Part shown: in pieces, positions 1-12,410 of the stretch | Numbering within the stretch: the stretch's first letter is position 1 | Layout: the number at the start of each line of letters is the position of its first letter | DNA from: an uncultured Candidatus Saccharibacteria bacterium | GTDB lineage: Bacteria > Patescibacteriota > Minisyncoccia > Phycocordibacterales > XYD1-FULL-46-19 | Assembly (NCBI GenBank): GCA_964355855.1 | Contig: CAYHFD010000004.1 | Coordinates: 1 to 40,787, forward strand | Reading direction: 5' to 3' | Length of the DNA stretch: 40,787 bases | Notes under the pieces: generated by a model | Database searches by the model: none | What the model was told of the DNA's origin: nothing | Seen by the model: only the letters and a program-made list of their open reading frames with translations | Translations under genes and position numbers: made by a program

Positions 1-18
1 TATAACACCCCAACTTGT

Positions 19-46
19 ATTATATCATATCTATATATAAAGTCAA
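19..46 (-). promoter_or_regulatory. sigma70-type promoter firing leftwards out of the window
   Basis: The minus strand reads TTGACT-16 nt-TATAAT with an extended TG (TGaTATAAT). Confidence 0.6.
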
Positions 47-89
47 GTACAAGAAAAGCCTTATATAGCTTAAAATAGAGGCTTACTTG

Positions 90-208
90 TCCTGTTAGAG
101 ACCGCGGACATAGGTGGTTGATGGGTGGGTAATATTTAAAACTTTTTACTAAAAATTTAATTACGGCAGTGGTGTGGGCTATTGGTCCGCTACCTGTCTC
201 TAATGGGA
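90..208 (+). repeat. Structured palindromic element, copy 1 (GTTAGA...TCTAA family), in the gpmI leader
   Basis: TCCTGTTAGAGAC (90-102) pairs with GTCTCTAATGGGA (196-208). Inner stem GCGGAC/GTCCGC and 3' bulge (T)ACCT. Same architecture as 11252-11367. Confidence 0.75.
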
Positions 209-1716
209 TGAATACTACTAATAAACAAGCAGTCCTAATTGTTTTAGATGGCTGGGGCTATTGCGAGGATGTGGAACACAATGCGGTGGCGGTGGCAAAG
301 ACTCCGGTGTTTGATAAATTGTGGGCGGAATACCCGCCCCTTTTAGAGGCCTCGGGGCTCGCGGTGGGGCTACCGGCAGGGCAGATGGGCAACTCGGAGA
401 TTGGGCACACCACTATTGGCGCGGGCAAGATTATTGATACCGACTTGGTGCGGATTGAAAAAGCGATCAGAAATGGCGAGTTGCCGATAAATATCGCGCT
501 GTGCTCGGTGTTTGAACACGTGCGGAAAAATAATTCCACGCTCCACCTAATGGGTCTGCTTTCGGACGGTGGCGTGCACAGTCACGAAGACCATTTGCAT
601 GCGGTGTTAAAAACCGCCAAAGAGGCAGGCGTAAAGAAAATTGCCTTGCATATTTTTACCGATGGTCGCGACACGGCCCCGCAAAGCGCTGGTGGCTATT
701 TGAAAAAACTGGAAAATGTTTTGGAAGAAATTGGTATTGGTCAGATTGCGACCGTTTCTGGTCGCTTTTACGCCATGGACCGTGATAATAATTGGGACCG
801 GATGGTGAGGGCCGAGCGAGCGATGTTTGATTGTGTCGGTAAAACTTGCCAGCTTAAAAAACCATCGGAGCTCGTCGCTGAACTGCATGCCGAGGGACTG
901 CTGGACGAACATTTAGAGCCGATTGTTTTTCTAGACGAAAGTGGTCAGGGTTACAAGGTGGAAAACGGAGATGGTATTTTTCTGTTTAATTTCCGCTCGG
1001 ACCGAATGAAGATGCTGATGAAGTGCCTTTTGGAGAAAAAAGAAGCGCTGAATTTGAAAATTACCACCATGACTGAATATGACAATAGTTTTGCTTGTGC
1101 GGTAGTCTTTCCGCCGATACCAATAGAAACGACGCTCGCGGCGGAAGTGGCGAAGGCTGGTCTCACCCAAGCCCATATTGCGGAGACGGAAAAATTCCCC
1201 CACGCCACTTACTTTTTAAATGGCGGCCGGAAGGAACCACACGCGGGCGAGGCACACATTTTACTTGATAGTCGCAAAGATGTGCCGACGCACGACTTGG
1301 CCCCGAAAATGCGCGCCGCCAGTATTGCCGACAAGGCGGTTGAGGAAATAGAGAAGGGAACCAACTTTATTTTTATTAACTTCGCGAACCCTGATATGGT
1401 GGGGCATACCGCCAATGTGCCGGCCATTGTGGAAGCGCTAGAGGAAGTAGACACTCAACTCGGGCGGGTCTATGAAGCAACCGAGCGTATCGGCGCTGTA
1501 TTATTTATAACCGCCGATCATGGCAATGCCGAGGTAAATGTGGACCAAAAAACAAGGGAAAAGCATACTGCTCATACGACAAATCCGGTACCAGCGATTG
1601 TGACTGATAAAAACTTAAAAATAAAAGAAGGGACACTGGCTGATATTGCGCCGACAATATTAACCTTACTCGACCTTCCTCAACCCGCTAGTATGACTGG
1701 GCAGAAACTAATTTAG
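208..1716 (+). CDS. gpmI: 2,3-bisphosphoglycerate-independent phosphoglycerate mutase
   Basis: Motifs LIVLDGWG, GQMGNSEIGH, SDGGVHSH, DGRDT, GRFYAMDRD, AETEKFPHATYF, NPDMVGHT, TADHGNAE. Start moved from GTG169 to ATG208 because the upstream codons lie inside the palindromic element. Confidence 0.97.
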   Translation: MNTTNKQAVLIVLDGWGYCEDVEHNAVAVAKTPVFDKLWAEYPPLLEASGLAVGLPAGQMGNSEIGHTTIGAGKIIDTDLVRIEKAIRNGELPINIALCSVFEHVRKNNSTLHLMGLLSDGGVHSHEDHLHAVLKTAKEAGVKKIALHIFTDGRDTAPQSAGGYLKKLENVLEEIGIGQIATVSGRFYAMDRDNNWDRMVRAERAMFDCVGKTCQLKKPSELVAELHAEGLLDEHLEPIVFLDESGQGYKVENGDGIFLFNFRSDRMKMLMKCLLEKKEALNLKITTMTEYDNSFACAVVFPPIPIETTLAAEVAKAGLTQAHIAETEKFPHATYFLNGGRKEPHAGEAHILLDSRKDVPTHDLAPKMRAASIADKAVEEIEKGTNFIFINFANPDMVGHTANVPAIVEALEEVDTQLGRVYEATERIGAVLFITADHGNAEVNVDQKTREKHTAHTTNPVPAIVTDKNLKIKEGTLADIAPTILTLLDLPQPASMTGQKLI

Positions 1717-1754
1717 TTGTGGTGATAATTTTACTAGGCTACAATTTGATTTAA

Positions 1755-2306
1755 ATGTTCGACCGACCTTATACACAAGGGTTTTCCATCATACTGGCCA
1801 TTTCTATTTTGGCCTTAGTTTTGGTTATTGGAGCGACATTTTTTAACTATCAAAAAAATACGGATATTGCTTATGACCTTGATATATTAAATGGCCAGTT
1901 GCAGATAAATAATAATTTAATAAATACCACTAAAAAAAATATACCAATAGTTGCCAGTTCCACCGCGTCAACGACAGAGGATTTGGTTAATAAGGTCACT
2001 GGTCGCTACGAGGAATATAACCCCGACCGATTTCCCTTTGAATTTGGAATAAAACCGATTATGTTCTTTTTTGCCGGTTGGGATGAAAAATCACGAGAAC
2101 TTGATATTAATATCACCACCAATAGTGACCAAATACCATTGGGCGTTGTTATCCTTAAAACTGATTATGACCGTCGGGTGTCATTAAAGAGTAAATACAA
2201 AGTAATCGAGCCTAATACTTTTGTTCAGACCGATCGGAGTGGAAAAATAATTAACAGTTGGTCGGGGTCTATAACCCTAGAAGAGATTGTCAAAGAAATA
2301 AAATAG
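1755..2306 (+). CDS. Membrane-anchored thioredoxin-fold protein lacking the CxxC cysteines
   Basis: N-terminal hydrophobic helix after QG|F. The C-terminal pattern MFFFAGWDEKSR...VVILKTDYD...LKSKYKV...TFVQTD.SGKII..WSG resembles a thioredoxin fold. The protein has no Cys. Confidence 0.6.
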   Translation: MFDRPYTQGFSIILAISILALVLVIGATFFNYQKNTDIAYDLDILNGQLQINNNLINTTKKNIPIVASSTASTTEDLVNKVTGRYEEYNPDRFPFEFGIKPIMFFFAGWDEKSRELDINITTNSDQIPLGVVILKTDYDRRVSLKSKYKVIEPNTFVQTDRSGKIINSWSGSITLEEIVKEIK

Positions 2307-2345
2307 CTGACTAGGAGCGATTATTGTTTCCTATTTGGCAAGTAT

Positions 2346-2915
2346 TTAAGCTAAAAGCTCTTTAATATTTCCAGCTAGTCCAGTGACATCGCCCTCGGTA
2401 CCAGTAGTGTCTCCGGTTATATTTGACACATTGCCCAAAATATTAGTGACATTGCCTGAAATTTTACTGATATTGCCAATTAGGTGGGTCACATTGCCCG
2501 AAATGTTAGTCACATTGCCTATAATATTAGACACATCACCAACCAAGTCCGACACAGTACCACTAATGTTGGTGGTATTACCCCTGATATTAGATACATC
2601 ACCCTGAAGGCCAGTAACTTTGCCAACTAAGCCTGATATATCACCAGAAATTTTAGACACATCGCCAAATACATTGGAAACATCGCCACGGATATTGGAA
2701 ATATCACCCATAATATTAGACACATCGCCAATAACACCAGAAATATCACCCCGAATTTTAGAGGGGTCACCAATTATACGATGAAGGTCAATATCACCAG
2801 AAATATTAGACACATCGCCACGCAAATCAATAAAATCTCCCCAGATGGCGTAATGTATACCCCGAACATTTTTAGTGTTGCGATTAGGACGATGATTTAT
2901 TTCTTCAAGACTCAT
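2346..2915 (-). CDS. Heptapeptide-repeat protein ([ILV]xG[DN][VI][ST]x)n, probable solenoid
   Basis: Twenty uninterrupted 7-residue units from IIGDPSK to LAGNIKE, plus two more upstream. TATAAT lies upstream on the minus strand. Confidence 0.8.
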   Translation of the reverse strand: MSLEEINHRPNRNTKNVRGIHYAIWGDFIDLRGDVSNISGDIDLHRIIGDPSKIRGDISGVIGDVSNIMGDISNIRGDVSNVFGDVSKISGDISGLVGKVTGLQGDVSNIRGNTTNISGTVSDLVGDVSNIIGNVTNISGNVTHLIGNISKISGNVTNILGNVSNITGDTTGTEGDVTGLAGNIKELLA

Positions 2916-2976
2916 AATTTAGGGGAGCTATAAAATAATAATTAAATTATAGCGCAATCAATTTATCTGAACCACC

Positions 2977-2999
2977 AAAAAATCCCCCGCAGGGGATTT
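2977..2999 (-). terminator. Intrinsic terminator of the small acidic ORF
   Basis: Minus strand AAATCCCC-TGCG-GGGGATTT followed by a T run. Confidence 0.7.
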
Positions 3000-3020
3000 A
3001 GAGGAGTAGTCAAGCAGTGA

Positions 3021-3149
3021 CTATTCGGCTGGTGTTTCAGGGGCCTCTTTGCTATCCATCGCTTCATCCTCTGAAGGGGTAGCGGTCGGTGCGGGTACGT
3101 CCACTACCGGTGCGTTTGCATCAGCCTGCGGATCCTGTGTTTCGTCCAT
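3021..3149 (-). CDS. Small acidic, Pro/Ala-rich 42-aa protein (not in the ORF track)
   Basis: Translated by hand: MDETQDPQADANAPVVDVPAPTATPSEDEAMDSKEAPETPAE*. It is GC-richer than its flanks, has an A-rich pre-ATG context and is followed by a terminator. Confidence 0.65.
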   Translation of the reverse strand: MDETQDPQADANAPVVDVPAPTATPSEDEAMDSKEAPETPAE

Positions 3150-3293
3150 AGTTTTGTTTCCGTTAGACTAGCCCCTTTAGAGTAAAAGGCTAGAAATCTA
3201 GTAATAGGGTTCAGTCTAGCAGTTTAGTCTAGATAAAACAATGAAAATGCTATTAAGGAAGACATTTTAGCTAATATTCGTTAGACTTATAGA

Positions 3294-3716
3294 ATGGAAG
3301 AAAAAATTATTATTGGTCGCTCTACCCATATTGACCTACCAAACTTTAATATGTATGATATCCCCGCTAAAGTGGATACCGGGGCCTATCGGGGGGCTTT
3401 ACACTGTCGAGATATACGGTTAAGTGCCGACGGTAAAACTTTGTATTTTAAGTTGCTTGATGAACGACATCCGGAATATAGTGCCCACGATCAAGCGGTG
3501 ACTGATTTTGGTCTTGTTAAAATAAAAAATACTGGTATTGATTGGCAAGAGCGTTATAAAATTAAAACCGAAATTATTATTGCTGGGCAAAGTATTGTGA
3601 CCGAAATGACACTGGCCGATCGGGCCGATATGCGTTTTCCAGTTTTGATTGGACGCAAGGCTCTTAAAAAAAAGTTTTTAGTAAATGTGTCTAAAAAAGT
3701 TAATTTAAATAAATAA
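3294..3716 (+). CDS. RimK-associated retropepsin-like peptidase (RimB/'ATP-dependent zinc protease' family)
   Basis: AKVDTGA motif and C-terminal TLADR.DMRFPVLIGR. Lies directly upstream of rimK. Confidence 0.88.
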   Translation: MEEKIIIGRSTHIDLPNFNMYDIPAKVDTGAYRGALHCRDIRLSADGKTLYFKLLDERHPEYSAHDQAVTDFGLVKIKNTGIDWQERYKIKTEIIIAGQSIVTEMTLADRADMRFPVLIGRKALKKKFLVNVSKKVNLNK

Positions 3717-3719
3717 TTT

Positions 3720-4643
3720 ATGAATATTGCAGTCTTATCGACTAATCCTGACCTCTATTCAACCAAAAGGTTATTGGAAGCGGCGGAAAAAAGGGGACAT
3801 AAAGTTGTTATTATAAACCACACCAAGTGTAACCTTATTATGGAAAAAGGTCGGCCATCAATTCAGGCTGACGGTAAAACTATTTCCGATATCGAGGCTA
3901 TTATTCCTCGTATCGGCGCCTCGGTTAGTTTTTTTGGCGCCGCGGTGATTAGGCAGTTTGAAATGCTTAAAGTTTTTTCATCGTTGTCGTCTATTGCCCT
4001 GGTGCGTTCGCGCGACAAATTGCGTAGTTTACAATTGATGTCTAAATTTGGTCTAGGTATTCCTAAATCAGTCTTTGCTAAGTTTCCCAAAGATAAAGAT
4101 GTGGAGGATTTAATTGAACAAGTTGGTGGAGCACCGGTGATTATCAAAGTTTTGCAAGGGACGCAGGGTTTGGGGATAGTTTTGGCGGATACGACCAATT
4201 CGGCCAAGTCGATGGTGGAAGCTTTTTCAGGTCTAAAGCAAAACATTTTAATTCAGGAATTTATTGCCGAAGCACATGGGGCAGATATTAGGGCTTTTGT
4301 GGTTGGTAATAAGGTAGTAGCGGCGATGAAGCGCACGGGCAAGACCGGTGAGTTTCGGTCTAATATTCACCGGGGTGGAGTGGCCGAGCCAATTGAATTA
4401 TCAAAAAAAGAAAAAGTTTTGGCGGTTGAGGCGGCCCGGTCTTTGGGTCTATCAATTGCTGGTGTTGATATGCTTTTGTCTGAACGGGGAATGTTGATTA
4501 TCGAGGTTAATTCATCACCTGGTCTTCAGGGTATAGAAAGGGCAACTGGGGTAGATGTGGCTGGTCAGATTATTGAATTTGTCGAGGCTGGCGTGCAAAA
4601 GAAAAAACAAACTAAAAAGAAAAAACAAAAAGATATATTGTAA
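3720..4643 (+). CDS. rimK: RimK-family alpha-L-glutamate ligase (ATP-grasp)
   Basis: Motifs LYSTKRL, IPRIGAS, SRDKLRSLQL, GTQGLG, QEFIAE..GADIR, FRSNIHRGG, EVNSSPGL. Confidence 0.95.
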   Translation: MNIAVLSTNPDLYSTKRLLEAAEKRGHKVVIINHTKCNLIMEKGRPSIQADGKTISDIEAIIPRIGASVSFFGAAVIRQFEMLKVFSSLSSIALVRSRDKLRSLQLMSKFGLGIPKSVFAKFPKDKDVEDLIEQVGGAPVIIKVLQGTQGLGIVLADTTNSAKSMVEAFSGLKQNILIQEFIAEAHGADIRAFVVGNKVVAAMKRTGKTGEFRSNIHRGGVAEPIELSKKEKVLAVEAARSLGLSIAGVDMLLSERGMLIIEVNSSPGLQGIERATGVDVAGQIIEFVEAGVQKKKQTKKKKQKDIL

Positions 4644-4683
4644 ACCCAAAAAAACAGCAAATCGGTTGCTGTTTTTTTGGGTT
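4643..4683. terminator. Bidirectional intrinsic terminator
   Basis: AACCCAAAAAAACAGCAA-ATCGG-TTGCTGTTTTTTTGGGTT between convergent genes. Confidence 0.85.
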
Positions 4684-5224
4684 ACACTGTTTCTGTTTTG
4701 ACTATTTCGCTGTCAGTAGTGGCCTGATGAGCTAACTGTAGAATAATTTTTTTCACCCCCTCGGGATCGTTGGCATAATTTAAAGAGAAGTAATGTCCAT
4801 CAACGGCGGTATGAATATGAAGGCGACCAAATTTAAGCATGGTGGATATAAATCCAGGCATTTCGATAGTTACATCTTGAATTTTTTCTAGGTCAAAACT
4901 TGAAATCTCTCGATGAAATAAACCATTTTGTTTTAGATCAACAATTTTTTTATTGGTAATAATCCAGACATCTAAATAGTAGTCGGTCCAAGCTAGAAAG
5001 AAATAGGTCCAGACAAAAACTAACCAAAGTAAATATACAAACAAACCAGCATAAAAAACCAGTAAACTAAAGCGAGCTTCGGTGATATATAAAAATAAAT
5101 AAATAAATACCAGGGGGGCAAGGACCGCTAAGGTTGAAATGCCGGCTTCGGCCAGAAAAATAAACCAGTGATTTCTAACTTCCTTTATAATACTTTCTCC
5201 TGGGTTTAGGTAGACTGATGTCAT
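4682..5224 (-). CDS. Membrane protein with a bacterial PH (bPH_2-like) domain
   Basis: L.PGE.II..VR.HW start, two TM helices, then WIITNKKIVD..Q.GLF...IQDVT...FGRLHIHTA. Confidence 0.8.
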   Translation of the reverse strand: MTSVYLNPGESIIKEVRNHWFIFLAEAGISTLAVLAPLVFIYLFLYITEARFSLLVFYAGLFVYLLWLVFVWTYFFLAWTDYYLDVWIITNKKIVDLKQNGLFHREISSFDLEKIQDVTIEMPGFISTMLKFGRLHIHTAVDGHYFSLNYANDPEGVKKIILQLAHQATTDSEIVKTETV

Positions 5225-5457
5225 ATGATACTAGAAAACAAACTTATAGTTATGGTTATGGCGACCAATAAAAAACCTATTACCAATAGATAGATTGTTT
5301 CGGCTAAAATGATAGTGCGCGAATTAGTGCCATAATTTTTCCAATGAAATATTAACATAAAACTAAAAGGTATGGCATAAATTAAGGTTAACGCAAAAAT
5401 CAGCCACAGGTGAAATGGTCTAATGAGAGAGACAAAGGATTCTATATTTTCCAGCAT
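5221..5457 (-). CDS. Small two-TM hypothetical membrane protein
   Basis: Two hydrophobic helices. ATGA overlap with the next gene. A -10-like TATATT lies 6 nt before the ATG. Confidence 0.7.
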   Translation of the reverse strand: MLENIESFVSLIRPFHLWLIFALTLIYAIPFSFMLIFHWKNYGTNSRTIILAETIYLLVIGFLLVAITITISLFSSII

Positions 5458-5523
5458 ATATTAATAATATAACACATCATAGCTGGTTTGATGAGACTAA
5501 AAATACGGAGTATAATTGTTGTT

Positions 5524-5979
5524 ATGCTTAGAAAGAAAAGCCTAGTTATCATTTCTGGGGTTATTGTACTGGTAATTTTTGTTTTAGGGGTAAATATTTA
5601 CCTATTAAAAGCTAAAGAAAAAGATGATCTTAATATTGATAAAAAAGTTGCATATATTAGATCTGTTTTTAAGACAACTGATGGTTATAAGTTAGTTGTT
5701 GATTTTTTGCCGTCTATTTCCTCGACCACATGCGTCAATTTAGACCAGTGTTCTAAAAATGGTAATACTGACAACAGCTTGGTATCATATAAAATTAACT
5801 GGGGTTTAAGAGTCCAGCAAATAACAGATGACGGTAAATTAGAAAGTCAACGCTATTCACCGTGGGCCTTACGGCGACTTTTAGATAATAAGGCGGAAAT
5901 TCAAAATATACCGTTTGTGGTAAATATTTATAATGATGAAGTAATAAGTTTGGAAGAGGTATATGATTCAGAAATTTAA
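5524..5979 (+). CDS. Hypothetical exported or membrane-anchored protein
   Basis: Basic N-terminus plus TM helix and a Cys pair. Start moved to ATG5524, 7 nt after TATAAT. Confidence 0.7.
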   Translation: MLRKKSLVIISGVIVLVIFVLGVNIYLLKAKEKDDLNIDKKVAYIRSVFKTTDGYKLVVDFLPSISSTTCVNLDQCSKNGNTDNSLVSYKINWGLRVQQITDDGKLESQRYSPWALRRLLDNKAEIQNIPFVVNIYNDEVISLEEVYDSEI

Positions 5980-5996
5980 TTGTTATATCAATTAGT

Positions 5997-6944
5997 ATGT
6001 TTAAAAATATTACTTTCGGTGTCTTCTTGGTTCTAGCGGTGGCCGGTTTTTTAATTGTTATAATTTTTAATCTAAATAAAGAAGAAAATAAATTAGCGAC
6101 CAATGAAGCTCTATCGGCTCCACCTGAGTCAAATCAAAGCACATCGACTTTAGCTGAAATTAAGGACGCTCTAGTTAAGGTTAGTGATTTTGTTTTTTCA
6201 CCACTAGAGGAGGCGGTGAACAGGGTTATTACTCCGGGACCATTGAATCTTTTGGCGGGGGCGGGCGGGGCCAATTACGAAGTTAATTTGACCCGGGCGG
6301 GTGTTATAGCTAAAACCAATGAAGAAAGAATTCGGGAAAATTTGCCCGCTTTGGCTGAAAATCCCAAACTAAACGAAGCTGCTCGTTATCGTCTCGAGGA
6401 CATCTTTAAAAAGCAGTATTTTGCCCACGAGTCACCATCTGGTCAGGGGGTAGCCGAAGCGGTCGGGTCGACTAATTATGGCTACATTGTGGTTGGAGAA
6501 AATCTGGCTTTGGGTGGTTTTAAAAATGATGAAGCGGTGGTGCGGGCTTGGCTTTTAAGTCCTGGTCATAAGGCCAATATGTTGGCCCGGCGCTATTTTG
6601 ATATTGGAGTGGCGGTTGGTGAGGGCAATTTCAAGGGAACCAGAGCGCGTTTGGCCGTCCAGGTTTTTGGTACGCCTTTAACTGTTTGCCCGACTCCTAA
6701 CGAGTCACTTAAAACTAAAATTTATAGTAATAAAGCTCGGATTGATAAATTAGAACCGGAATTGGCCAGCTTAAAATTGTTTATAGATAAACAGGGGCCA
6801 TTTTCGACCGGTCTTAGTGTAAAAATAAAAGAGTACAATGGTAAGGCTTCAGAATTTAATAACTTGATTCAGGTAACACAAGTGTCTATTGCTGAATATA
6901 ATAATCAGGTCAAGCGCTTTAACAGTTGCGCTGAAACAAAATAG
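5997..6944 (+). CDS. CAP (SCP/Tpx-1/Ag5) domain protein with N-terminal anchor and C-terminal coiled coil
   Basis: TNEER...L..AA...YFAHESPSG...VGENLA...WLLSPGHKANM...IGVAV...VQVFG. Confidence 0.9.
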   Translation: MFKNITFGVFLVLAVAGFLIVIIFNLNKEENKLATNEALSAPPESNQSTSTLAEIKDALVKVSDFVFSPLEEAVNRVITPGPLNLLAGAGGANYEVNLTRAGVIAKTNEERIRENLPALAENPKLNEAARYRLEDIFKKQYFAHESPSGQGVAEAVGSTNYGYIVVGENLALGGFKNDEAVVRAWLLSPGHKANMLARRYFDIGVAVGEGNFKGTRARLAVQVFGTPLTVCPTPNESLKTKIYSNKARIDKLEPELASLKLFIDKQGPFSTGLSVKIKEYNGKASEFNNLIQVTQVSIAEYNNQVKRFNSCAETK

Positions 6945-6949
6945 AAATT

Positions 6950-7453
6950 ATGACTTTAACAGCGCATGGGACGGTGGGGGCAGTGGTGGTGGCAGTTATG
7001 CCAACCAATCCGGTTTTAGGTTTAGGTCTAGCTTTTGGTAGTCATTTTATTTTAGATTTGATACCCCATTATGATTATCGGATATTGTCGCTTGACCATG
7101 AGGCGGAAAAAGGTGGCGTAGTAAAGATGACTTTTAGTAAAAATTTCATTTTTGATTTGGGTCGAATTGGATTGGATGCTGTGGTTGGGCTAGCTATTGC
7201 CATGGGGATAGTTTATTTTTTTGAATTATCAAATTTTACCCTTTTAATTTTAGGCGGTGCTATATTGGGCATGCTTCCCGATTTTTTGCAATTTGTAAAT
7301 GGTAAAGTAAATAATTATTTTTTGTCTTCTCTTCAAAAATTCCATAATTTTTTTCATACCAAGCATAAGCTGGTGGGTTGGCCGGTTGTCGGTTTTATTT
7401 CCCAGACAACCTTTGTTTTACTGATAGTTTTGTTATTTTTCTTATCTCAATAA
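6950..7453 (+). CDS. Membrane protein with conserved His/Asp motifs (putative metal-dependent hydrolase-like)
   Basis: HxxxG, SHFILDLIPH, LPD and FHNFFH motifs within TM segments. Confidence 0.6.
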   Translation: MTLTAHGTVGAVVVAVMPTNPVLGLGLAFGSHFILDLIPHYDYRILSLDHEAEKGGVVKMTFSKNFIFDLGRIGLDAVVGLAIAMGIVYFFELSNFTLLILGGAILGMLPDFLQFVNGKVNNYFLSSLQKFHNFFHTKHKLVGWPVVGFISQTTFVLLIVLLFFLSQ

Positions 7454-7455
7454 AT

Positions 7456-8232
7456 ATGTCTAGTTTTGATGTAATTATACTCAGTATTATTGAAGGCCTG
7501 ACAGAGTTTTTGCCTATTTCTTCGACGGCTCATCTTATAATCGGGGCCCGCCTACTTGGTCTACCCAACTCGGATTTTATAAAGTCTTTCGAAATATTTA
7601 TCCAATTAGGAGCAATTTTGGCCGTGGTGATGGTCTATTGGCGTCGCTTGGTGTCTAATTTTGGTTTAATTAAAAAAGTCATTTTAGCATTTATTCCGAC
7701 TGCCCTGATTGGTTTTTTGGCGTACCCAATTGTTAAAGATATTTTGTTGGAAAGCTTATTAACAGTCGCTTGGACTTTATTTATTGGTGGGTTAATTTTA
7801 ATTTTGTTTGAATATTGGTATGAAAAAACTCAAAATAAAGAAATTAAACGCGATCTAGATAGCTTAACTTATGGGGAATGCTTGGTTCTTGGTTTAGTCC
7901 AATCTTTGGCCATAATTCCCGGTGTTTCTAGGGCGGGAGCGACTATTGTAGGGGGCTTGGGTTTGGGTTTTTCTCGTCAAGCAATAGTTGAGTTTTCTTT
8001 TTTGTTGGCTCTACCAACTATGTTGGCGGCGACGGGTTATGATTTGTTGAAAAGTGGGGTGAATTTTAGTGGCGATAATATAATTATACTTTTTTCAGGT
8101 TTTTGGTTATCGTTTTTGTTTGCGTGGGTGGCTGTTAGGTGGCTGATAGGTTTTATTAAAAACCATAACTTTATTTGGTTTGGTGTTTATCGGATAGTAG
8201 TGGCAATTTTGATTGGTCTGCTTATTTTGTAG
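7456..8232 (+). CDS. uppP: Undecaprenyl-diphosphate phosphatase
   Basis: IEGLTEFLPISSTAHL, IQLGAILAV, PGVSRAGATI, EFSFLLALP. Start moved to ATG7456. Confidence 0.96.
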   Translation: MSSFDVIILSIIEGLTEFLPISSTAHLIIGARLLGLPNSDFIKSFEIFIQLGAILAVVMVYWRRLVSNFGLIKKVILAFIPTALIGFLAYPIVKDILLESLLTVAWTLFIGGLILILFEYWYEKTQNKEIKRDLDSLTYGECLVLGLVQSLAIIPGVSRAGATIVGGLGLGFSRQAIVEFSFLLALPTMLAATGYDLLKSGVNFSGDNIIILFSGFWLSFLFAWVAVRWLIGFIKNHNFIWFGVYRIVVAILIGLLIL

Positions 8233-8364
8233 GAGATTAACAAAAAGGCGAGTTTGTGCTATTGTGTAAGTATACAAGGGTAACCAAATAGTACCTTTGT
8301 TTTCTGGGTTGTCTAAACCATAGGTGATTTTAAACAAAATTAATAAGTAAATTATAAAAATTTT

Positions 8365-9138
8365 ATGGACACACAAATTAAAAATATTTTAGGAATTGTA
8401 ATTATTGTTGTGTTGGTGGTAGGGGCAGGGTCGGCCATTGTTTTTACTAGGGCTTTTTCTAAATCGGTAAATCCGGCGTCGACCAGAAGCTTTACGGTGA
8501 CAGGAGAGGGGGAAATTATGGCGACACCAGATATTGCTGATTTTTCCTTTAGCGTTGTTTCTCAAAGGGGGGCTGATTTAACCGCTCTTCAGGCTGATAA
8601 TACGACTAAAGTTAATAAGGTAATTGAATATCTTAAAGCTCAAGGGATAGAGGCTAAAGATATTAAAACTTCTGGTTATAATGTTAGCCCGCAATACGAA
8701 TACTATCAGTGTAAGCCAAACGGTGTTTGTCCACCGGCCCGTATCACTGGCTATGAAGTAAATCAAACAGTAGCGGTCAAGGTTCGTGATTTTGCTAAGG
8801 TTGGACCACTGCTTTCGGGGGTAGTAAAAAATGGAGCCAACTCTGTTTCTAGCTTGGAATTTAGACTAGAAGATCCAACTGGGGCACAAAATGATGCTCG
8901 AACCGAGGCTATTGCTAAGGCTAAAGCTCAAGCGAAAGAAGTGGCCAAGGCTGGTGGATTTCGTTTAGGTAAACTTCTGTCTATTGAAGAAGTAAATGGT
9001 TATATGCCATTTGCTTATGGCCGAGGTGGTAGCGTAATGATGGCTGAACAGGATAGTAAGCAGGCCATAACTCCAACAGTAGAACCGGGTAGTAATTCGG
9101 TCAAAATACAAGTAATTTTACATTACGAAATTAAGTAA
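8365..9138 (+). CDS. SIMPL (DUF541) domain protein
   Basis: TVTGEGEI.ATPDIA, DIKTSGYNVSPQY, ARTEAIAKAKAQA, LGKLLSIEE, PG. Confidence 0.92.
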   Translation: MDTQIKNILGIVIIVVLVVGAGSAIVFTRAFSKSVNPASTRSFTVTGEGEIMATPDIADFSFSVVSQRGADLTALQADNTTKVNKVIEYLKAQGIEAKDIKTSGYNVSPQYEYYQCKPNGVCPPARITGYEVNQTVAVKVRDFAKVGPLLSGVVKNGANSVSSLEFRLEDPTGAQNDARTEAIAKAKAQAKEVAKAGGFRLGKLLSIEEVNGYMPFAYGRGGSVMMAEQDSKQAITPTVEPGSNSVKIQVILHYEIK

Positions 9139-9146
9139 TGTCTGAC

Positions 9147-9186
9147 AAAAAACCGGCCGGCGCCTTTGGGCGCCGGCCGGTTTTTT
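9147..9186 (+). terminator. Intrinsic terminator (bidirectional form)
   Basis: A6-CCGGCCGGCGCC-TTTG-GGCGCCGGCCGG-T6. Confidence 0.9.
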
Positions 9187-9188
9187 GA

Positions 9189-9216
9189 TTGAAAAAAAAT
9201 TTAGAAATGCTATACT
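9189..9216 (+). promoter_or_regulatory. Probable pyk promoter
   Basis: TTGAAA-16 nt-TATACT with an extended TGc. Confidence 0.6.
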
Positions 9217-9226
9217 AACACCAAAT

Positions 9227-9400
9227 GAATTACCCACGCCCTAACGGGACGGGGTATCTTCATTTTTGAGAACCCACAGTTCTCAACACTCGCTTCGCTC
9301 GCTGCTTTCCTTCACGGGAAACCCGCAGGGTTTCCCGTCCCCATCCGGCATTCCCGAATTCATCCCGCGAGCTGACGCTCGGGGAATTCTTCGGGAATTA
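9227..9400 (+). mobile_element. Non-autonomous miniature element with IS200/IS605-like subterminal hairpins
   Basis: GC-rich island of four tandem hairpins (9231-9256, 9266-9286, 9314-9338, 9350-9398). GAATTA occurs at both ends. No transposase is present. Confidence 0.55.
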
Positions 9401-9429
9401 TTAAAAATGTTTAAAAATATCGAGTATTT

Positions 9430-9455
9430 GACTCGGAAGCCCAGCTTTCCGAGTC
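9430..9455. repeat. REP-like palindrome upstream of pyk
   Basis: GACTCGGAA-GCCCAGCT-TTCCGAGTC. Confidence 0.5.
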
Positions 9456-9477
9456 TCTGTAATTTTAGCTAAACCAT

Positions 9478-10908
9478 ATGTATAGAAAGAAAACCAAGAT
9501 CGTGGCCACTATCGGCCCAGTGACTTCCTCGGAGGAAATGCTAACGAAGCTCCTCAAAGCTGGGCTTAATATTGTTCGTCTCAATTTTTCGCACGGTGAT
9601 TTTGCCGAGCACCAAACCAAGATTGATAATCTTAAAAAAGCGATGTTTAAAACTGGCATACCAGCGGCTGTTATGCAGGACCTAGGTGGACCAAAAATTC
9701 GTACTGGTGATTTTTCAACCGAAACGGTCACACTTAAACCTGGTCAAATATTTACTATTACCACCGATAAGATTATTGGTGATGAAACTAGGGTGTCGGT
9801 AAACTATGCCCCTTTGCCCAAAGAGGTAAAAAAAGGGAGTTTTATTTTACTTCATGATGGTAAGAAAAAATTGGAGATTATTGAAATAAAAGGCAATAAT
9901 GTTATTTGTAAAGTGATTGTTGGTGGTGAAATGAAGGGCCGGCGGGGTATAAATTTGCCAGGGGCTCATCTCTCGATTAGCTCCCTTACCGACAAAGATA
10001 AAAAAGATTTAATTTTTGGTATAAAAAATAAAGTTGATTTTGTGGCTTTTTCCTTTGTTCGCCGGGCCGAAGATATTCGGGAATTGCGTCGGTTATTAGA
10101 AAAAGCCAAATCAAAAGCGAAAATTATTGCTAAATTAGAAGATGTTGAAGGTTTAGAGAATATTGATCAAATTATTGAATTGGTAGACGGGGTGATGGTG
10201 GCTCGAGGTGATATGGCGATTGAGATAGGGGCCGAAAACGTGCCGATGGTCCAAAAAATGATTATCAAAAAATGCAATGAGCTGGGTAAACTGGTTATAA
10301 CAGCTACCCACATGTTGGAATCAATGATCAAAAATCCAGTTCCAACTCGCGCCGAAGTTTCTGATATTGCTAATGCAATTTTTGATGGTACCGATGCCAT
10401 TATGTTGTCGGAAGAAACTACGCTTGGTGAACACCCGGTGGAAGCGGTTGAGGTGATGACCAAGGTGGCCGAAAAAACCGAAAAACATGAAATGTATCAG
10501 CATATGGTGGCCGATATGCAAAAATTAAAACATGAGAGTATTGGCGAGCGCGTTTCTGATGCTGTTACCAATGAAGCGGTGGATATTGCCAATGCGGTTA
10601 AAGCTAAAGCCATTATTGCTCTGACTAATTCTGGTTTTACGGCCCGGATGATTTCTCGCTACAAACCATTTCAACCGATTATAGGTTTTACTCCTAATGA
10701 AGTAACGGCGCGCCAACTTCTTTTGTCTTTTGGGGTAGTGCCAGTAGCCATTAAAAAATTTAAAAATTTTCATGAAGTTTTACCACTCATTCGCAGTCAT
10801 TGTTTAAAGGAAAAATTAGTTAAAAAGGGTGATAAGGTGGTGGTTTCGGTTGGCTATCCTTTTGGTCAGTCGATTGATACGAATATGATAATGGTGGAAA
10901 CGATTTAG
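9478..10908 (+). CDS. pyk: Pyruvate kinase
   Basis: TKIVATIGP, RLNFSHG, DLGGPKIR, VMVARGDM, PTRAEVSDIANAIFDGTDAIMLSEET. Confidence 0.98.
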   Translation: MYRKKTKIVATIGPVTSSEEMLTKLLKAGLNIVRLNFSHGDFAEHQTKIDNLKKAMFKTGIPAAVMQDLGGPKIRTGDFSTETVTLKPGQIFTITTDKIIGDETRVSVNYAPLPKEVKKGSFILLHDGKKKLEIIEIKGNNVICKVIVGGEMKGRRGINLPGAHLSISSLTDKDKKDLIFGIKNKVDFVAFSFVRRAEDIRELRRLLEKAKSKAKIIAKLEDVEGLENIDQIIELVDGVMVARGDMAIEIGAENVPMVQKMIIKKCNELGKLVITATHMLESMIKNPVPTRAEVSDIANAIFDGTDAIMLSEETTLGEHPVEAVEVMTKVAEKTEKHEMYQHMVADMQKLKHESIGERVSDAVTNEAVDIANAVKAKAIIALTNSGFTARMISRYKPFQPIIGFTPNEVTARQLLLSFGVVPVAIKKFKNFHEVLPLIRSHCLKEKLVKKGDKVVVSVGYPFGQSIDTNMIMVETI

Positions 10909-10952
10909 GGTAACTGGATTTGCGCTAGGGTATACGGTAACATGCTAATTAC

Positions 10953-11174
10953 ATGTATATCTATGTGAAAGTAAAAGCTAAAGCTAAAACCGAAGAGTTG
11001 TCTGAAGTTGGACCTAACCGCTTTACAATATGTGTTCGCGAGGCGGCCCAAAGAGGAGAGGCAAATAAAAGGGTTTTAGAAATAGTGGCCACTCATTTGG
11101 GACGGCCCCTTTCGGCGGTACGGATATTTAGTGGACACACAACACCAAATAAACTCCTGTCAATTAAAGACTAA
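10953..11174 (+). CDS. DUF167 (YggU/UPF0235) family protein
   Basis: VKVKAKAK...V.EAAQRGEAN...V.IFSG.T..NK. Confidence 0.85.
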   Translation: MYIYVKVKAKAKTEELSEVGPNRFTICVREAAQRGEANKRVLEIVATHLGRPLSAVRIFSGHTTPNKLLSIKD

Positions 11175-11251
11175 TTTTTTGTTTTTAGCTAGGGAGTAGT
11201 ATAATTAATAGTAGAATTGAATATTAATTAATCTTAACTTTTTCTTATGAA

Positions 11252-11367
11252 TCCCGTTAGAAGCCGCGGTCGACAAATCTTAATATACAATATAATATGA
11301 AAGTCTGGTTGAATATTTATCAATCTAATTATAAACAGGCGCGTACCGCGACCTGCTTCTAACGAGA
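11252..11367 (+). repeat. Structured palindromic element, copy 2 (GTTAGA...TCTAA family), in the hpf leader
   Basis: TCCCGTTAGAAGC pairs with GCTTCTAACGAGA (one mismatch). Inner stem CGCGGT/ACCGCG and 3' bulge ACCT. Confidence 0.75.
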
Positions 11368-11735
11368 TGAAAACCAATGTTAAGACGACAAATATGGTAA
11401 TGACTCCAGCCATTGAGCAGTATCTGAGCTTTAAGATTGCCAAGGTCGGGAAATATATAGATGAGTCAAATGGGGAAGCTATGGTAGACATTGAAGTAGG
11501 TAAAACAACTGAACATCATCGTCGCGGCCAGTTATTTAAGGCCGAGATCAATCTAGTGGTACCCGGGCAATCACTTCGTCGAGCCAATGTTGAGGGCTAT
11601 GATCTTTATACGGCTATCGTGGAAGCCCGCGATGAAATTGTAAGACAAATTACGATGACTCATGATAAAAAAACCGCTCTGTTTCGGCGGGGGGCGCGGA
11701 AAATTAAAAATATGATGAGAAAGTCTAATAATTAA
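11367..11735 (+). CDS. raiA: Ribosome hibernation factor / ribosome-associated inhibitor (short HPF/RaiA)
   Basis: N+K..NM.MTPAIEQY...KI.K, FKAEINL.VPG, DLYTAI pattern of the sigma54-modulation/S30EA family. Confidence 0.88.
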   Translation: MKTNVKTTNMVMTPAIEQYLSFKIAKVGKYIDESNGEAMVDIEVGKTTEHHRRGQLFKAEINLVVPGQSLRRANVEGYDLYTAIVEARDEIVRQITMTHDKKTALFRRGARKIKNMMRKSNN

Positions 11736-11759
11736 GCTTAAAATTAAATAAATTAAAAT

Positions 11760-12410
11760 ATGAATTTGAAATTGCTTTGGGCAATCATTGTGGTGGCAGT
11801 AGTGGGGGCAATGATACTAATGGGTTTTCTTAATAAAAAAAATAATATAAATATAATGAGTGAGGAAAATAGTAATGCAACAACCACAGTCGATGCTTAT
11901 GGAATAAATCCCGTGGCGGTATTTGAGACCAATCAAGGTAATTTCGAAATTGAGTTACAGCTCGACAAAATGCCGATTACGGCCGGTAATTTTGTGAAGC
12001 TGGCCAAAGCTGGTTTTTACGATGGGACTCGTTTTCACCGCGTAATTAAAGATTTTATGATCCAGGGTGGGGATCCATTAACCAAAAGTCAGCCGGAAAA
12101 TGTCGCGATTCATGGCACTGGCGGGCCGGGTTATGCGATAGAAGACGAGTTTGTGGCGGGGCAGTCTAATGGGCGTGGGACAATTTCGATGGCTAATTCC
12201 GGGCCAAACTCGGGCGGTAGCCAGTTTTTTATCAACCTGGTGGACAATACTTTTCTTGATTTTGACAACCCAATAAGCCAAGGCAAGCACCCGGTTTTTG
12301 GCAAGGTGGTGAGTGGGATGGACGTGGTGGACAAAATCGGTTTGTTACCAACGGTACCAGGCGACCGGCCGGTGGAAGCGGTGATTGTAAATAAAGTGAC
12401 AATCCGATAA
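11760..12410 (+). CDS. Cyclophilin-type peptidyl-prolyl cis-trans isomerase with N-terminal membrane anchor
   Basis: P.TAGNFV.LA..GFYDGTRFHRVIKDFMIQGGDP, ISMANSGPNSGGSQFFIN, HPVFGKV. Confidence 0.95.
   Translation: MNLKLLWAIIVVAVVGAMILMGFLNKKNNINIMSEENSNATTTVDAYGINPVAVFETNQGNFEIELQLDKMPITAGNFVKLAKAGFYDGTRFHRVIKDFMIQGGDPLTKSQPENVAIHGTGGPGYAIEDEFVAGQSNGRGTISMANSGPNSGGSQFFINLVDNTFLDFDNPISQGKHPVFGKVVSGMDVVDKIGLLPTVPGDRPVEAVIVNKVTIR

Follow-up and report, generated by a model that had tools for sequence, protein, structure and literature searches.

Hairpins on start codons in a Patescibacteria genome as probable gene-less derivatives of a small GIY-YIG element

Two hairpins that close on the start codons of gpmI and hpf

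The window (the whole 40,787-nt stretch of DNA analysed, which is contig C4 of a genome of 760,546 bp in 42 contigs, here called G000) carries gpmI (208-1716, + strand), which encodes a cofactor-independent phosphoglycerate mutase (Pfam iPGM_N, 3.3e-71; Metalloenzyme, 5e-70), and hpf (11367-11735, + strand), which encodes a ribosome hibernation factor of the S30AE family (Pfam Ribosomal_S30AE, 2.7e-12). Each of these genes hosts, on the same strand, a gene-less hairpin that ends on its ATG. Copy 1 (90-207, + strand; 118 nt, T...G) has a 13-bp outer stem when the sequence is read directly, in which the 5′ arm, T90-C102, is the terminal inverted repeat and pairs with the 3′ arm, G196-A208, including the wobbles T93.G205 and G94.T204; pairing ends at A208, the first base of the gpmI ATG. 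The inner stem GCGGAC/GTCCGC is formed by G104-C109 and G185-C190, with a 3′ bulge, TACCT, at 191-195. In copy 2 (11252-11366, + strand; 115 nt) the outer stem joins T11252-C11264 to G11355-A11367, leaving 12 of 13 positions paired and a single C.A mismatch; CGCGGT/ACCGCG forms the inner stem and ACCT the bulge, and the outer stem closes with A11367, the first base of the hpf ATG. The stems, the bulge, the wobbles and the closure on the A of the start codon, which a sequence-only reading had described, were thus confirmed by direct reading and by folding: copy 1 folds at -44.0 kcal/mol (z -4.06) and copy 2 at -31.6 kcal/mol (z -3.53), and in each case 0 of 200 shuffles was as good.

Copy 2 is a young, intact example, 90% identical to its nearest relative (C10:8620) and scored at 92.8 bits by the covariance model described below. 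Copy 1 (70.2 bits) lacks the mini-ORF found in most copies, and because of this and of its best identity to any other copy, which is 63%, it is an old, decayed, MITE-like insertion. Its left ATG is no longer recognisable, and its two G.U pairs are decay of an old copy, not a trait of the family. A GTG-started frame (169-207, + strand) is open through the 3′ arm into gpmI and is a putative 13-codon N-terminal extension of the mutase.

No Rfam family matched the window at the gathering score and nothing overlapped either copy at E <= 1, which bears out the earlier statement that the element is not a named Rfam family. A terminator scan around the copies gave no terminator-like site. One weak promoter-like match (9/12) lies inside copy 2, at 11270-11298; 1.4 such matches are expected by chance in the region, and hence it is not evidence of a promoter. 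An integron attC identity was tried and rejected, since the element has a GTTAGA box at the 5′ side and a TCTAAC box at the 3′ side on both strands, whereas attC sites have the reverse arrangement.

Insertion with duplication of the start codon

The hpf and gpmI loci served as queries against four congeneric genomes (G001 to G004). The comparison of orthologous hpf loci, which the sequence-only reading had suggested as a check, revealed an exact empty site in G004, where ...ttttttcctATGAA runs directly into aactaatg... and the two alignment pieces overlap by five bases. At this point G004 reads ...cctATGAA followed by aact..., and G000 reads ...cttATGAA[TCCCG...115 nt...CGAG]ATGAAaacc. At hpf, 115 nt have thus been inserted and 5 bp, ATGAA, duplicated. 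Of the two ATGAA copies, the left one (11247-11251, + strand) is the former hpf start codon, as the G004 site tells, and the right one (11367-11371, + strand) is the current working start. Conservation had also been described as running from the stem into the gene; ATGAA is indeed present after the stem, but it is the target-site duplication and not element sequence. Copy 2 was absent at hpf from G001, G002, G003 and G004, and copy 1 was absent at gpmI from G002, G003 and G004. The congeners start gpmI with ATGGAAACAAATAAAAATACT... and G000 reads the element followed by ATGAATACT..., the N-terminus of gpmI in G000 being 3 codons shorter.

The duplication was surveyed over 57 distinct oriented copies from G000 and other genomes, 12 of whose loci had been chosen with ATG in the pattern. 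A T precedes CCCG in 56 of the 57. A direct repeat of 5 nt flanks 41 of them, and one of at least 4 nt flanks 48. The repeat varies with the host: ATGAA (30), ATGGA (5), ATGA (3) and ATGAG (2) were followed by ATGTA, ATGCG, ATGGAG, ATGAGTAA and two non-ATG cases. The family therefore has the target-site duplication and the empty site by which a MITE is known.

The stretch is contained in twelve DNA runs from five studies and in none of the listed RNA runs, and the contigs of four of them (X3, X5, X7 and X8) were compared over positions 1-12000 of the window. Copy 1 was spanned with 0 differences by the contigs of all four, which come from three studies. At copy 2 the contigs break, and the joints at 11272-11345 bear different loop sequences, which are therefore other family members. 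The contigs of these four runs, which drop rare variants, contained no insertion polymorphism, no excision junction and no joint that skips a whole element.

An oriented family at unrelated genes

G000 was scanned with the 9-base termini only, allowing one mismatch and with no ATG in the pattern, which gave 51 strand-rows corresponding to 25 loci. We retained 23 oriented copies; C2:53736 was left out, because its termini are weak and the model did not recover it, and a nested pair (C5:9640-9900) was handled apart. In 21 of the 23 copies the base that follows ...CGGG is the A of an ATG opening an ORF of 38-711 aa. One of the remaining two adjoins the next element in tandem, and the other (C2:60491) adjoins neither an ATG nor an element. 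In the reverse orientation 0 copies were followed by a start codon, the reverse side of C2:60491 entering a 377-aa open frame without one. The same held in other genomes, whose loci were found by the termini only and oriented solely by the 3′ CCT bulge: 14 of 15 long and 16 of 19 short forward elements adjoin a start codon with an ORF of at least 50 aa, and 0 of 33 reverse ones do. Both the proposal of a mobile family, made earlier from two copies, and the proposed tie to start codons thus hold, the first with 23 oriented copies and the duplicated empty site at hpf, the second with 21 of 23 copies in a fixed orientation.

Pfam families could be named for 17 of the 20 host proteins scanned, namely iPGM, S30AE/hpf, a class I aaRS, L3, L22, L35, L36, SecY, GAPDH, PGK, MurD, MurG, GltX, RecR, RmuC, RNase_T and PrgI. 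These functions (glycolysis, ribosome, cell wall, secretion, repair and aminoacylation) are unrelated. The host proteins begin at the right-hand ATG, and their family matches run from residue 1-10 onward. In 10 of 22 copies an upstream ORF on the same strand ends within 16 nt of the element, which therefore lies inside an operon transcript.

The family comprises three subfamilies, one of about 114 nt with GAAGC arms, another of about 113 nt with GAGGT arms and a third of 241 nt; the arms of copy 1 read GAGAC. The lengths in G000 (112-118 nt, including 113, 114 and 117, and 241 nt) are mostly not multiples of three, so that the spacing in multiples of three that had been pointed out is true of the two window copies (117 and 114) but not of the family. 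Two copies of 241 nt, at pgk and gltX, are 100% identical, and movement has therefore been recent. As in a MITE family, copies are many and dispersed (23 plus the nested pair in 760 kb) and too short to encode a mobilising enzyme.

A covariance model and a genome scan had been proposed as a further check. The model rests on 45 copies. It recovered the 20 of them that come from G000 (68-101 bits in the sense and 27-50 bits in the antisense direction) and added the nested pair and a 47-nt mini-hairpin (C24:7589-7635); among the 150 of 670 candidates that were scored it found no further diverged copies.

Covariation and the strand that folds

Over the 45 copies, 91.6% of the cells are paired in arms of 13 + 7 bp, i.e., the inverted repeats that a MITE would have. 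Double-change cells numbered 106, as against 38.3 +/- 8.0 in shuffles (0 of 500 reached 106) and 14-22 in slid controls, so that the compensatory changes first seen between the arms of two copies extend to 45 members. The variable outer pairs were GC in 25 and AU in 20 copies, GC in 27 and AU in 15, and CG in 21 and UA in 20; the loop is not conserved across the family. This covariation shows that pairing matters, without telling in which molecule. When 49 copies were folded, the sense strand was the more stable in only 15, with means of -39.4 kcal/mol for the sense and -40.4 kcal/mol for the antisense strand (Wilcoxon p = 0.034, favouring antisense), and hence the transcribed strand does not have the better structure that a riboswitch would have. 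A bias to sense-strand G.U pairs was considered as a family feature and rejected, as it was not found among the 49 copies. Since the sense strand is not favoured, the G.U argument is limited to copy 1, and a hairpin or cruciform at the DNA level is at least as likely as an RNA structure.

The same ends on a GIY-YIG nuclease gene

The sample comprised 201 genomes of the order. The short form with exact termini was present in 50 of them, with up to 18 copies each, and a reversed-pattern control gave 0. A long form of 263-293 nt with the same termini was represented by 15 elements in 11 of the 201 genomes. Thirteen of these consist of one intact ORF each (86-95 residues), and the remaining two are short copies, tandem or composite. 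Twelve of the intact ORFs were aligned with a protein from contig C5 of G000 (alignment A1; the L073 ORF was left out), and all 13 sequences matched the GIY-YIG family of Pfam (PF01541). The nearest solved structures were UPF0213 BH0048 (E 1.1e-10), EF2693 and then SLX1, and the invariant columns of A1 include what we take to be the GIY-YIG core (two Tyr motifs, Arg and Glu).

In 7 of 13 elements the duplicated host ATG opens the ORF (M-N-P-V-R-D...), and in the other 6 the start is an internal ATG, 16-23 nt in. The ORF ends in ...RFLSLTG-stop, with a TGA that shares bases with the host ATG (ATGA) in 12 of 13 elements. It fills the element, and thus the inverted repeats are the coding ends of the nuclease gene itself, with nothing else between. 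The short copies retain roughly 35 nt from the 5′ end and roughly 75 nt from the 3′ end, and the loop motif TTATCAAnCTAAT matches, by eye, the stretch coding for ...ELYLKSG... in the nuclease. Because the same termini bound whole GIY-YIG ORFs, the P-V-R-x-R-G reading frame previously noticed at the 5′ side, which is real, is explained as the remnant N-terminus of the nuclease, and the short copies are, as far as their sequences tell, internally deleted, MITE-like derivatives of the nuclease element. A MITE should also have a longer, enzyme-encoding relative with the same ends, and the 13 intact elements are such relatives, none of them in G000.

No full element bounded by exactly these termini was found in G000 itself, but an intact nuclease gene of the family is present there (C5:21194-21457); it lacks the 5′ repeat, and its GGATGA end adjoins two short copies in tandem. 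A nuclease of the family (E <= 1e-20) was found in 39 of the 50 genomes with short copies and in 40 of the 151 without them (odds ratio 9.8; Fisher p 2.7e-10, which is overstated because kin are not independent). At the same threshold 11 of the 50 short-copy genomes, including G052 with 17 copies, were without one.

Choice of the start codon

The sequence ATGAA occurs at 2216 sites in G000, of which 192 are crude ORF starts, 346 lie outside ORFs and 1678 inside ORFs. It opens 21% of the ORFs, but makes up 30 of the 48 duplications. With 346 sites outside ORFs against 192 starts, the purging of intragenic hits alone would leave most copies off starts, unlike what is observed. The specificity for start codons goes beyond the 5-mer. 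As an extended target motif there was only an enrichment of G at positions -3 to -1 (19, 20 and 17 of 41), much of which stems from relic 3′ arms of earlier copies, which at least 8 of the 41 left flanks resemble. Occupied sites therefore seem to be hit again.

A small ORF that may open the hairpin

Most short copies contain a mini-ORF of at least 10 codons that begins at an ATG in the AU-rich loop and has as its stop the TAA within TCTAACGGG, which precedes the host ATG by 4 nt. It is present in 20 of the 23 G000 copies and in 34 of the 45 aligned short copies, and the other two frames have such an ORF in 2 and 2 of the 45. After 1000 shuffles of the loop, 4.8 +/- 2.1 of 45 copies had one, with a maximum of 14. 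Twenty-nine of the 34 mini-ORFs have 21-24 codons, and their peptides differ almost completely. The remaining 11 of the 45 short copies, copy 1 among them, are without it. The mini-ORF is partly a relic of the nuclease C-terminus, so that common descent explains some of its openness. In elements away from start codons it was found in 3 of 7, in some orientation, although these elements are few. SD-like cores occur in 8.5% of the 20-nt regions upstream of 272 long ORFs and in 11.8% of internal 20-mers; this test, a crude one made in G000, finds no SD enrichment and agrees with the earlier remark that the genome lacks SD sites.

The conserved mini-ORF suggests translational coupling with the host ATG. 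A hairpin of -30 to -45 kcal/mol that closes on the ATG should block initiation unless it is opened. An ORF inside the element that is translated through the 3′ arm would melt the hairpin and expose the host ATG, and ribosomes could then be passed on by termination-reinitiation, as the ORF ends at or 4 nt before that ATG. The relay ORF would be the nuclease gene, through the ATGA overlap, in full elements, and the mini-ORF of 21-24 codons in short copies. At copy 2 the putative relay would run from uORF1, which starts at the displaced start codon (11247-11300, + strand; MNPVRSRGRQILIYNII, then stop) and whose TGA overlaps the next ATG (ATGA), to the mini-ORF opened by that ATG (11297-11362, + strand; MKVWLNIYQSNYKQARTATCF, then stop), whose TAA lies within the 3′ inverted repeat 4 nt before the ATG of hpf, and from there to hpf.

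Interpretation and alternatives

We consider it highly probable that the hairpins descend, by internal deletion, from a tiny selfish GIY-YIG element located at start codons, and that they are non-autonomous. What was observed carries this explanation: a multi-copy family with a fixed orientation, the position at start codons, the duplication, the empty site, and termini that also bound whole nuclease genes. The full element measures about 280 bp (270-280 nt) and consists of one gene for a GIY-YIG protein of about 90 residues, the last 13-20 coding bases or so at either end being mutually inverted. The family inserts at a host start codon in one orientation and duplicates 5 bp (the ATG and two more bases, mostly ATGAA); the left ATG, with the upstream signals of the host, then reads into the element, and the right ATG restarts the host gene. 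The nuclease, or a homolog such as that at C5:21194-21457 of G000, would mobilise the hairpins by recognising their folded ends. Copy 1 has since lost its left ATG and its mini-ORF and gained two G.T wobbles.

A broader proposal, about which we are more doubtful than confident, is that these elements form a new class of prokaryotic transposon, whose sole gene would be a GIY-YIG nuclease of about 90 residues that uses folded inverted ends; such an element would dock on start codons, take over the start and the initiation signals of the host, and repay the host through stop/start coupling, and its miniatures would be selected to keep the relay ORF of 21-24 codons. To our knowledge no GIY-YIG enzyme acts as a transposase, and a literature search, supplementary files aside, found no published description of GIY-YIG elements that dock on start codons.

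Among the alternatives, exaptation survives best, although it is unlikely: the element could be kept as a portable module for translation initiation, which would bring an AU-rich loop start and coupling to an SD-less genome. The mini-ORF, whose length and stop position are fixed in the 34 of 45 copies that keep it open, would then have been retained for its use, and the lack of SD enrichment, the location of copies at starts when most ATGAA sites outside ORFs are not starts, and the identity of copy 1 in contigs of four runs from three studies all fit with it. However, congeners express the same genes without the element, its distribution is patchy (50 of 201 genomes), the tandem and nested copies and the relic arms upstream of 8 or more of the 41 sites look like repeated selfish hits, and the purging of harmful insertions would explain the same pattern.

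A second possibility, which we rate lower still, is that another enzyme, i.e., a transposase of the Y1/RAYT or DDE type, moves the hairpins, and that the GIY-YIG protein is a passenger or a colonising homing nuclease. DNA hairpins are substrates of Y1 enzymes, five Y1_Tnp ORFs (about 225 aa) and a single DDE_Tnp_1 ORF are present in G000 (no rve integrase was), and 11 of the 50 short-copy genomes are without a family nuclease. Nevertheless, the palindromes on either side of a Y1 gene differ from one such gene to the next and none is like CCCGTTAGA, and on this ground a link to the Y1 transposases was rejected. We also know of no target duplication made by Y1 elements, as opposed to the 5 bp duplicated here. 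The full element, whose repeats coincide with the coding ends of the nuclease gene with nothing else between, and the co-occurrence with the nuclease (odds ratio 9.8) also speak against this possibility.

That the hairpins are primarily a structured RNA, such as a switch, a thermosensor or a riboswitch evolved to control access to the start codon, is very improbable; a translational switch was among the possibilities named by the sequence-only reading. The same element stands on at least 20 unrelated genes and is missing from both orthologous loci in congeners, where a cis-regulatory RNA would occupy a conserved locus in one pathway; a target duplication is present, the termini are common to nuclease genes, the loop is not conserved and Rfam has no match. 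The stem that closes on the A of the ATG with a strong fold, the covarying arms, the G.U pairs of copy 1, which work on the sense strand only, and the missing SD enrichment (in the crude test of G000) are what speaks for such an RNA, but of the 49 copies only 15 fold more stably as the sense strand. A dedicated riboswitch or intron is thus not supported: the antisense strand folds at least as well as the sense strand, Rfam yields nothing and the functions of the host genes are unrelated. Two further readings, a mini-intron that is excised and a translational bypass (hop) element, to which the flanking direct repeats, resembling take-off and landing sites, and the spacing in multiples of three of the two window copies might point, can practically be dismissed. 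Most family lengths (112-118 and 241 nt) are not divisible by three, the host proteins start at the ATG to the right of the element, with family matches from residue 1-10 onward, and no Rfam intron family matched.

The hairpins have consequences for the annotation of these genomes. They stand on the starts of essential genes (ribosomal proteins, SecY, glycolysis and aminoacyl-tRNA synthetases) in 50 of the 201 genomes of the order, where they will be taken in error for leaders, riboswitches or misplaced starts. If the explanation is true, a one-ORF element of about 280 bp that duplicates its target and is specific for start codons would rank with the smallest autonomous mobile elements; its enzyme would belong to a family for which transposition is not known, and it provides a link to the Ssn hairpin-cutting nucleases. 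Under the broader proposal, a selfish element would have come to take part in the translation of dozens of essential genes in these ultra-small, SD-less groundwater bacteria. The relay ORF offers a testable model for how a strong hairpin on the ATG is tolerated in SD-less genomes.

Comparison with known systems

The proposed relay resembles textbook translational coupling, in which an upstream ORF ends on or near the next ATG (ATGA or TAAnnnnATG) and the translating ribosome opens a masking structure; here, too, the upstream ORF ends on the host ATG or a few bases before it, but unlike in the textbook case a mobile element would supply both the upstream ORF and the masking structure. The Correia/NEMIS elements of Neisseria, RUP and ERIC are MITEs that derive from DDE-type IS elements, are co-transcribed with their neighbours and duplicate TA or a similar target. 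The hairpins share with them the absence of a gene, a length of 100-150 bp, terminal inverted repeats, a duplication, many copies and hairpins in mRNA. We know of no case in which Correia, RUP or ERIC elements dock on start codons in one orientation, and the parent here, unlike theirs, would be a nuclease ORF of 90 residues that fills the whole element.

Elements of the IS200/IS605 and REP/RAYT groups have a Y1 transposase and a subterminal hairpin at each end, and make no duplication. They are similar in their hairpin-dependent, orientation-specific insertion at a short target and in having gene-less derivatives, but differ from the elements described here, which pair from end to end and duplicate their target; the Y1 genes of G000, moreover, are associated with other palindromes. 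The palindromic elements of Rickettsia lie in frame inside coding sequences and are translated as a part of the host protein. Both are small palindromic selfish DNA in essential gene regions of reduced genomes, but those described here are at the start codon and would be read as separate small ORFs.

Free-standing GIY-YIG homing genes of the T4 seg/mob type are copied from one site into the empty allele. In the available part of a study of the CPR, GIY-YIG ORFs are located in non-intron inserts of rRNA genes and spread in a way unlike homing (PMC11270868). Like the T4 genes and these inserts (PMC11270868, as far as its accessible text goes), the full elements would be selfish GIY-YIG genes of small size that lodge between host genes or inside them; CPR GIY-YIG proteins are otherwise mentioned only in passing in the accessible portions of PMC12455944 and PMC11270868. 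Unlike in homing, where there is one cognate site, one family occupies 21 different host genes in one genome, which share only ATG and 2 nt, and it has inverted repeats and a duplication.

The closest relatives in layout are the Ssn nucleases (Chenal et al. 2025; PMC11893778), small GIY-YIG enzymes flanked by NTS/SRM hairpin repeats, an arrangement that the authors call IS-like in the part of the article available. As with Ssn, so far as described there, a single-domain GIY-YIG protein of about 90 residues (in our case 86-95 aa, with PF01541 in 13 of the 13 sequences of A1) is tied to a multi-copy hairpin repeat on both sides (PMC11893778). The published SRM motif matched G000 twice (shuffles, 0-5), with 0 matches in the 23 elements and 0 within 500 nt of the 13 full elements. 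According to the available text, the SRM are separate local hairpins of 20-50 nt outside the gene, whereas here the ends of the gene pair across the whole element (PMC11893778). The accessible main text makes no mention of start codons or of Patescibacteria (PMC11893778), and the duplication and the docking on start codons are features of the elements described here that lie outside that part of the Ssn description (PMC11893778).

Effects on neighbouring genes

Only one copy of the element in the source genome of the window (G000; contigs C1, C2 and so on) was found off a start codon, at C2:60491-60607. On the opposite strand of this copy, a 377-aa glycosyltransferase-like frame (TKILYLITKSNFGG...) exits the element directly, without an ATG, and hence the start of this frame may have been destroyed or displaced. 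With the gltX copy (C8:19439), a TAG within its 5′ repeat (CCCGTTAG) is the present stop of the upstream 392-codon ORF; therefore, the C-terminus of the upstream gene was rewritten by the insertion. When 272 long ORFs of this genome were analyzed, Shine-Dalgarno-like cores were not enriched upstream (8.5%, against 11.8% in internal controls). This test was crude, and the start of each ORF was set at its first ATG.

Nested and tandem copies, and an inner palindrome

The 241-nt copies (C2:47335, C6:8246 and C8:19199) carry an inner palindrome, CCTGCC(T)GCCGG(C/T)AGGCAGG, which recurs within this subfamily and was also observed in elements of other genomes (locus L010 and genomes G094, G037 and G152). 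This palindrome resembles a further small palindromic unit, a second one, that sits inside the start-codon element. In addition, at C5:9640-9900 (- strand), a copy of ~114 nt holds a 101-nt family member nested in its 3′ arm, and a tandem pair of copies (C5:21454-21686) directly follows the family nuclease gene.

Other small GIY-YIG genes

A small GIY-YIG gene (95 aa; C1:38549-38803, - strand) has as its ends a perfect 21-bp inverted repeat, CCCACACACTAACTTTTGTTT, which differs from the repeat of the main family; together, gene and repeat look like a second family, an element of the same kind. Another GIY-YIG gene (97 aa; C17:10360-10593) is adjoined by the palindrome CCTGCCTGCCGGCAGGCAGG, and is flanked by a tRNA 5′ fragment on one side and by a complete tRNA on the other, the two having D-arm and anticodon-arm sequence in common.

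A probable conserved or repeated segment in the window

In four metagenome runs, contig depth was sharply higher at window positions 10001-10400 (up to 149, vs about 5-10 elsewhere), and several variants among the contigs were grouped at 9278-9356. A 37-nt stretch that ends at window position 9248 is identical to one that ends at C3:30964. The signal over 9201-10400 is probably that of a conserved or repeated gene segment.

Y1_Tnp genes and their palindromes

In the same genome, five ORFs (221-230 aa) are of the Y1_Tnp type (IS200/RAYT-like); they lie at C17:1570-2241, C6:11297-11518, C2:43400-44065 and C5:12316-12996, and on C32. As read in the 150-nt flanks, a short palindrome lies near four of the five, and the ORFs on C17, C6 and C2 have a similar palindrome on each side, a two-sided arrangement that resembles the layout of a REPtron.
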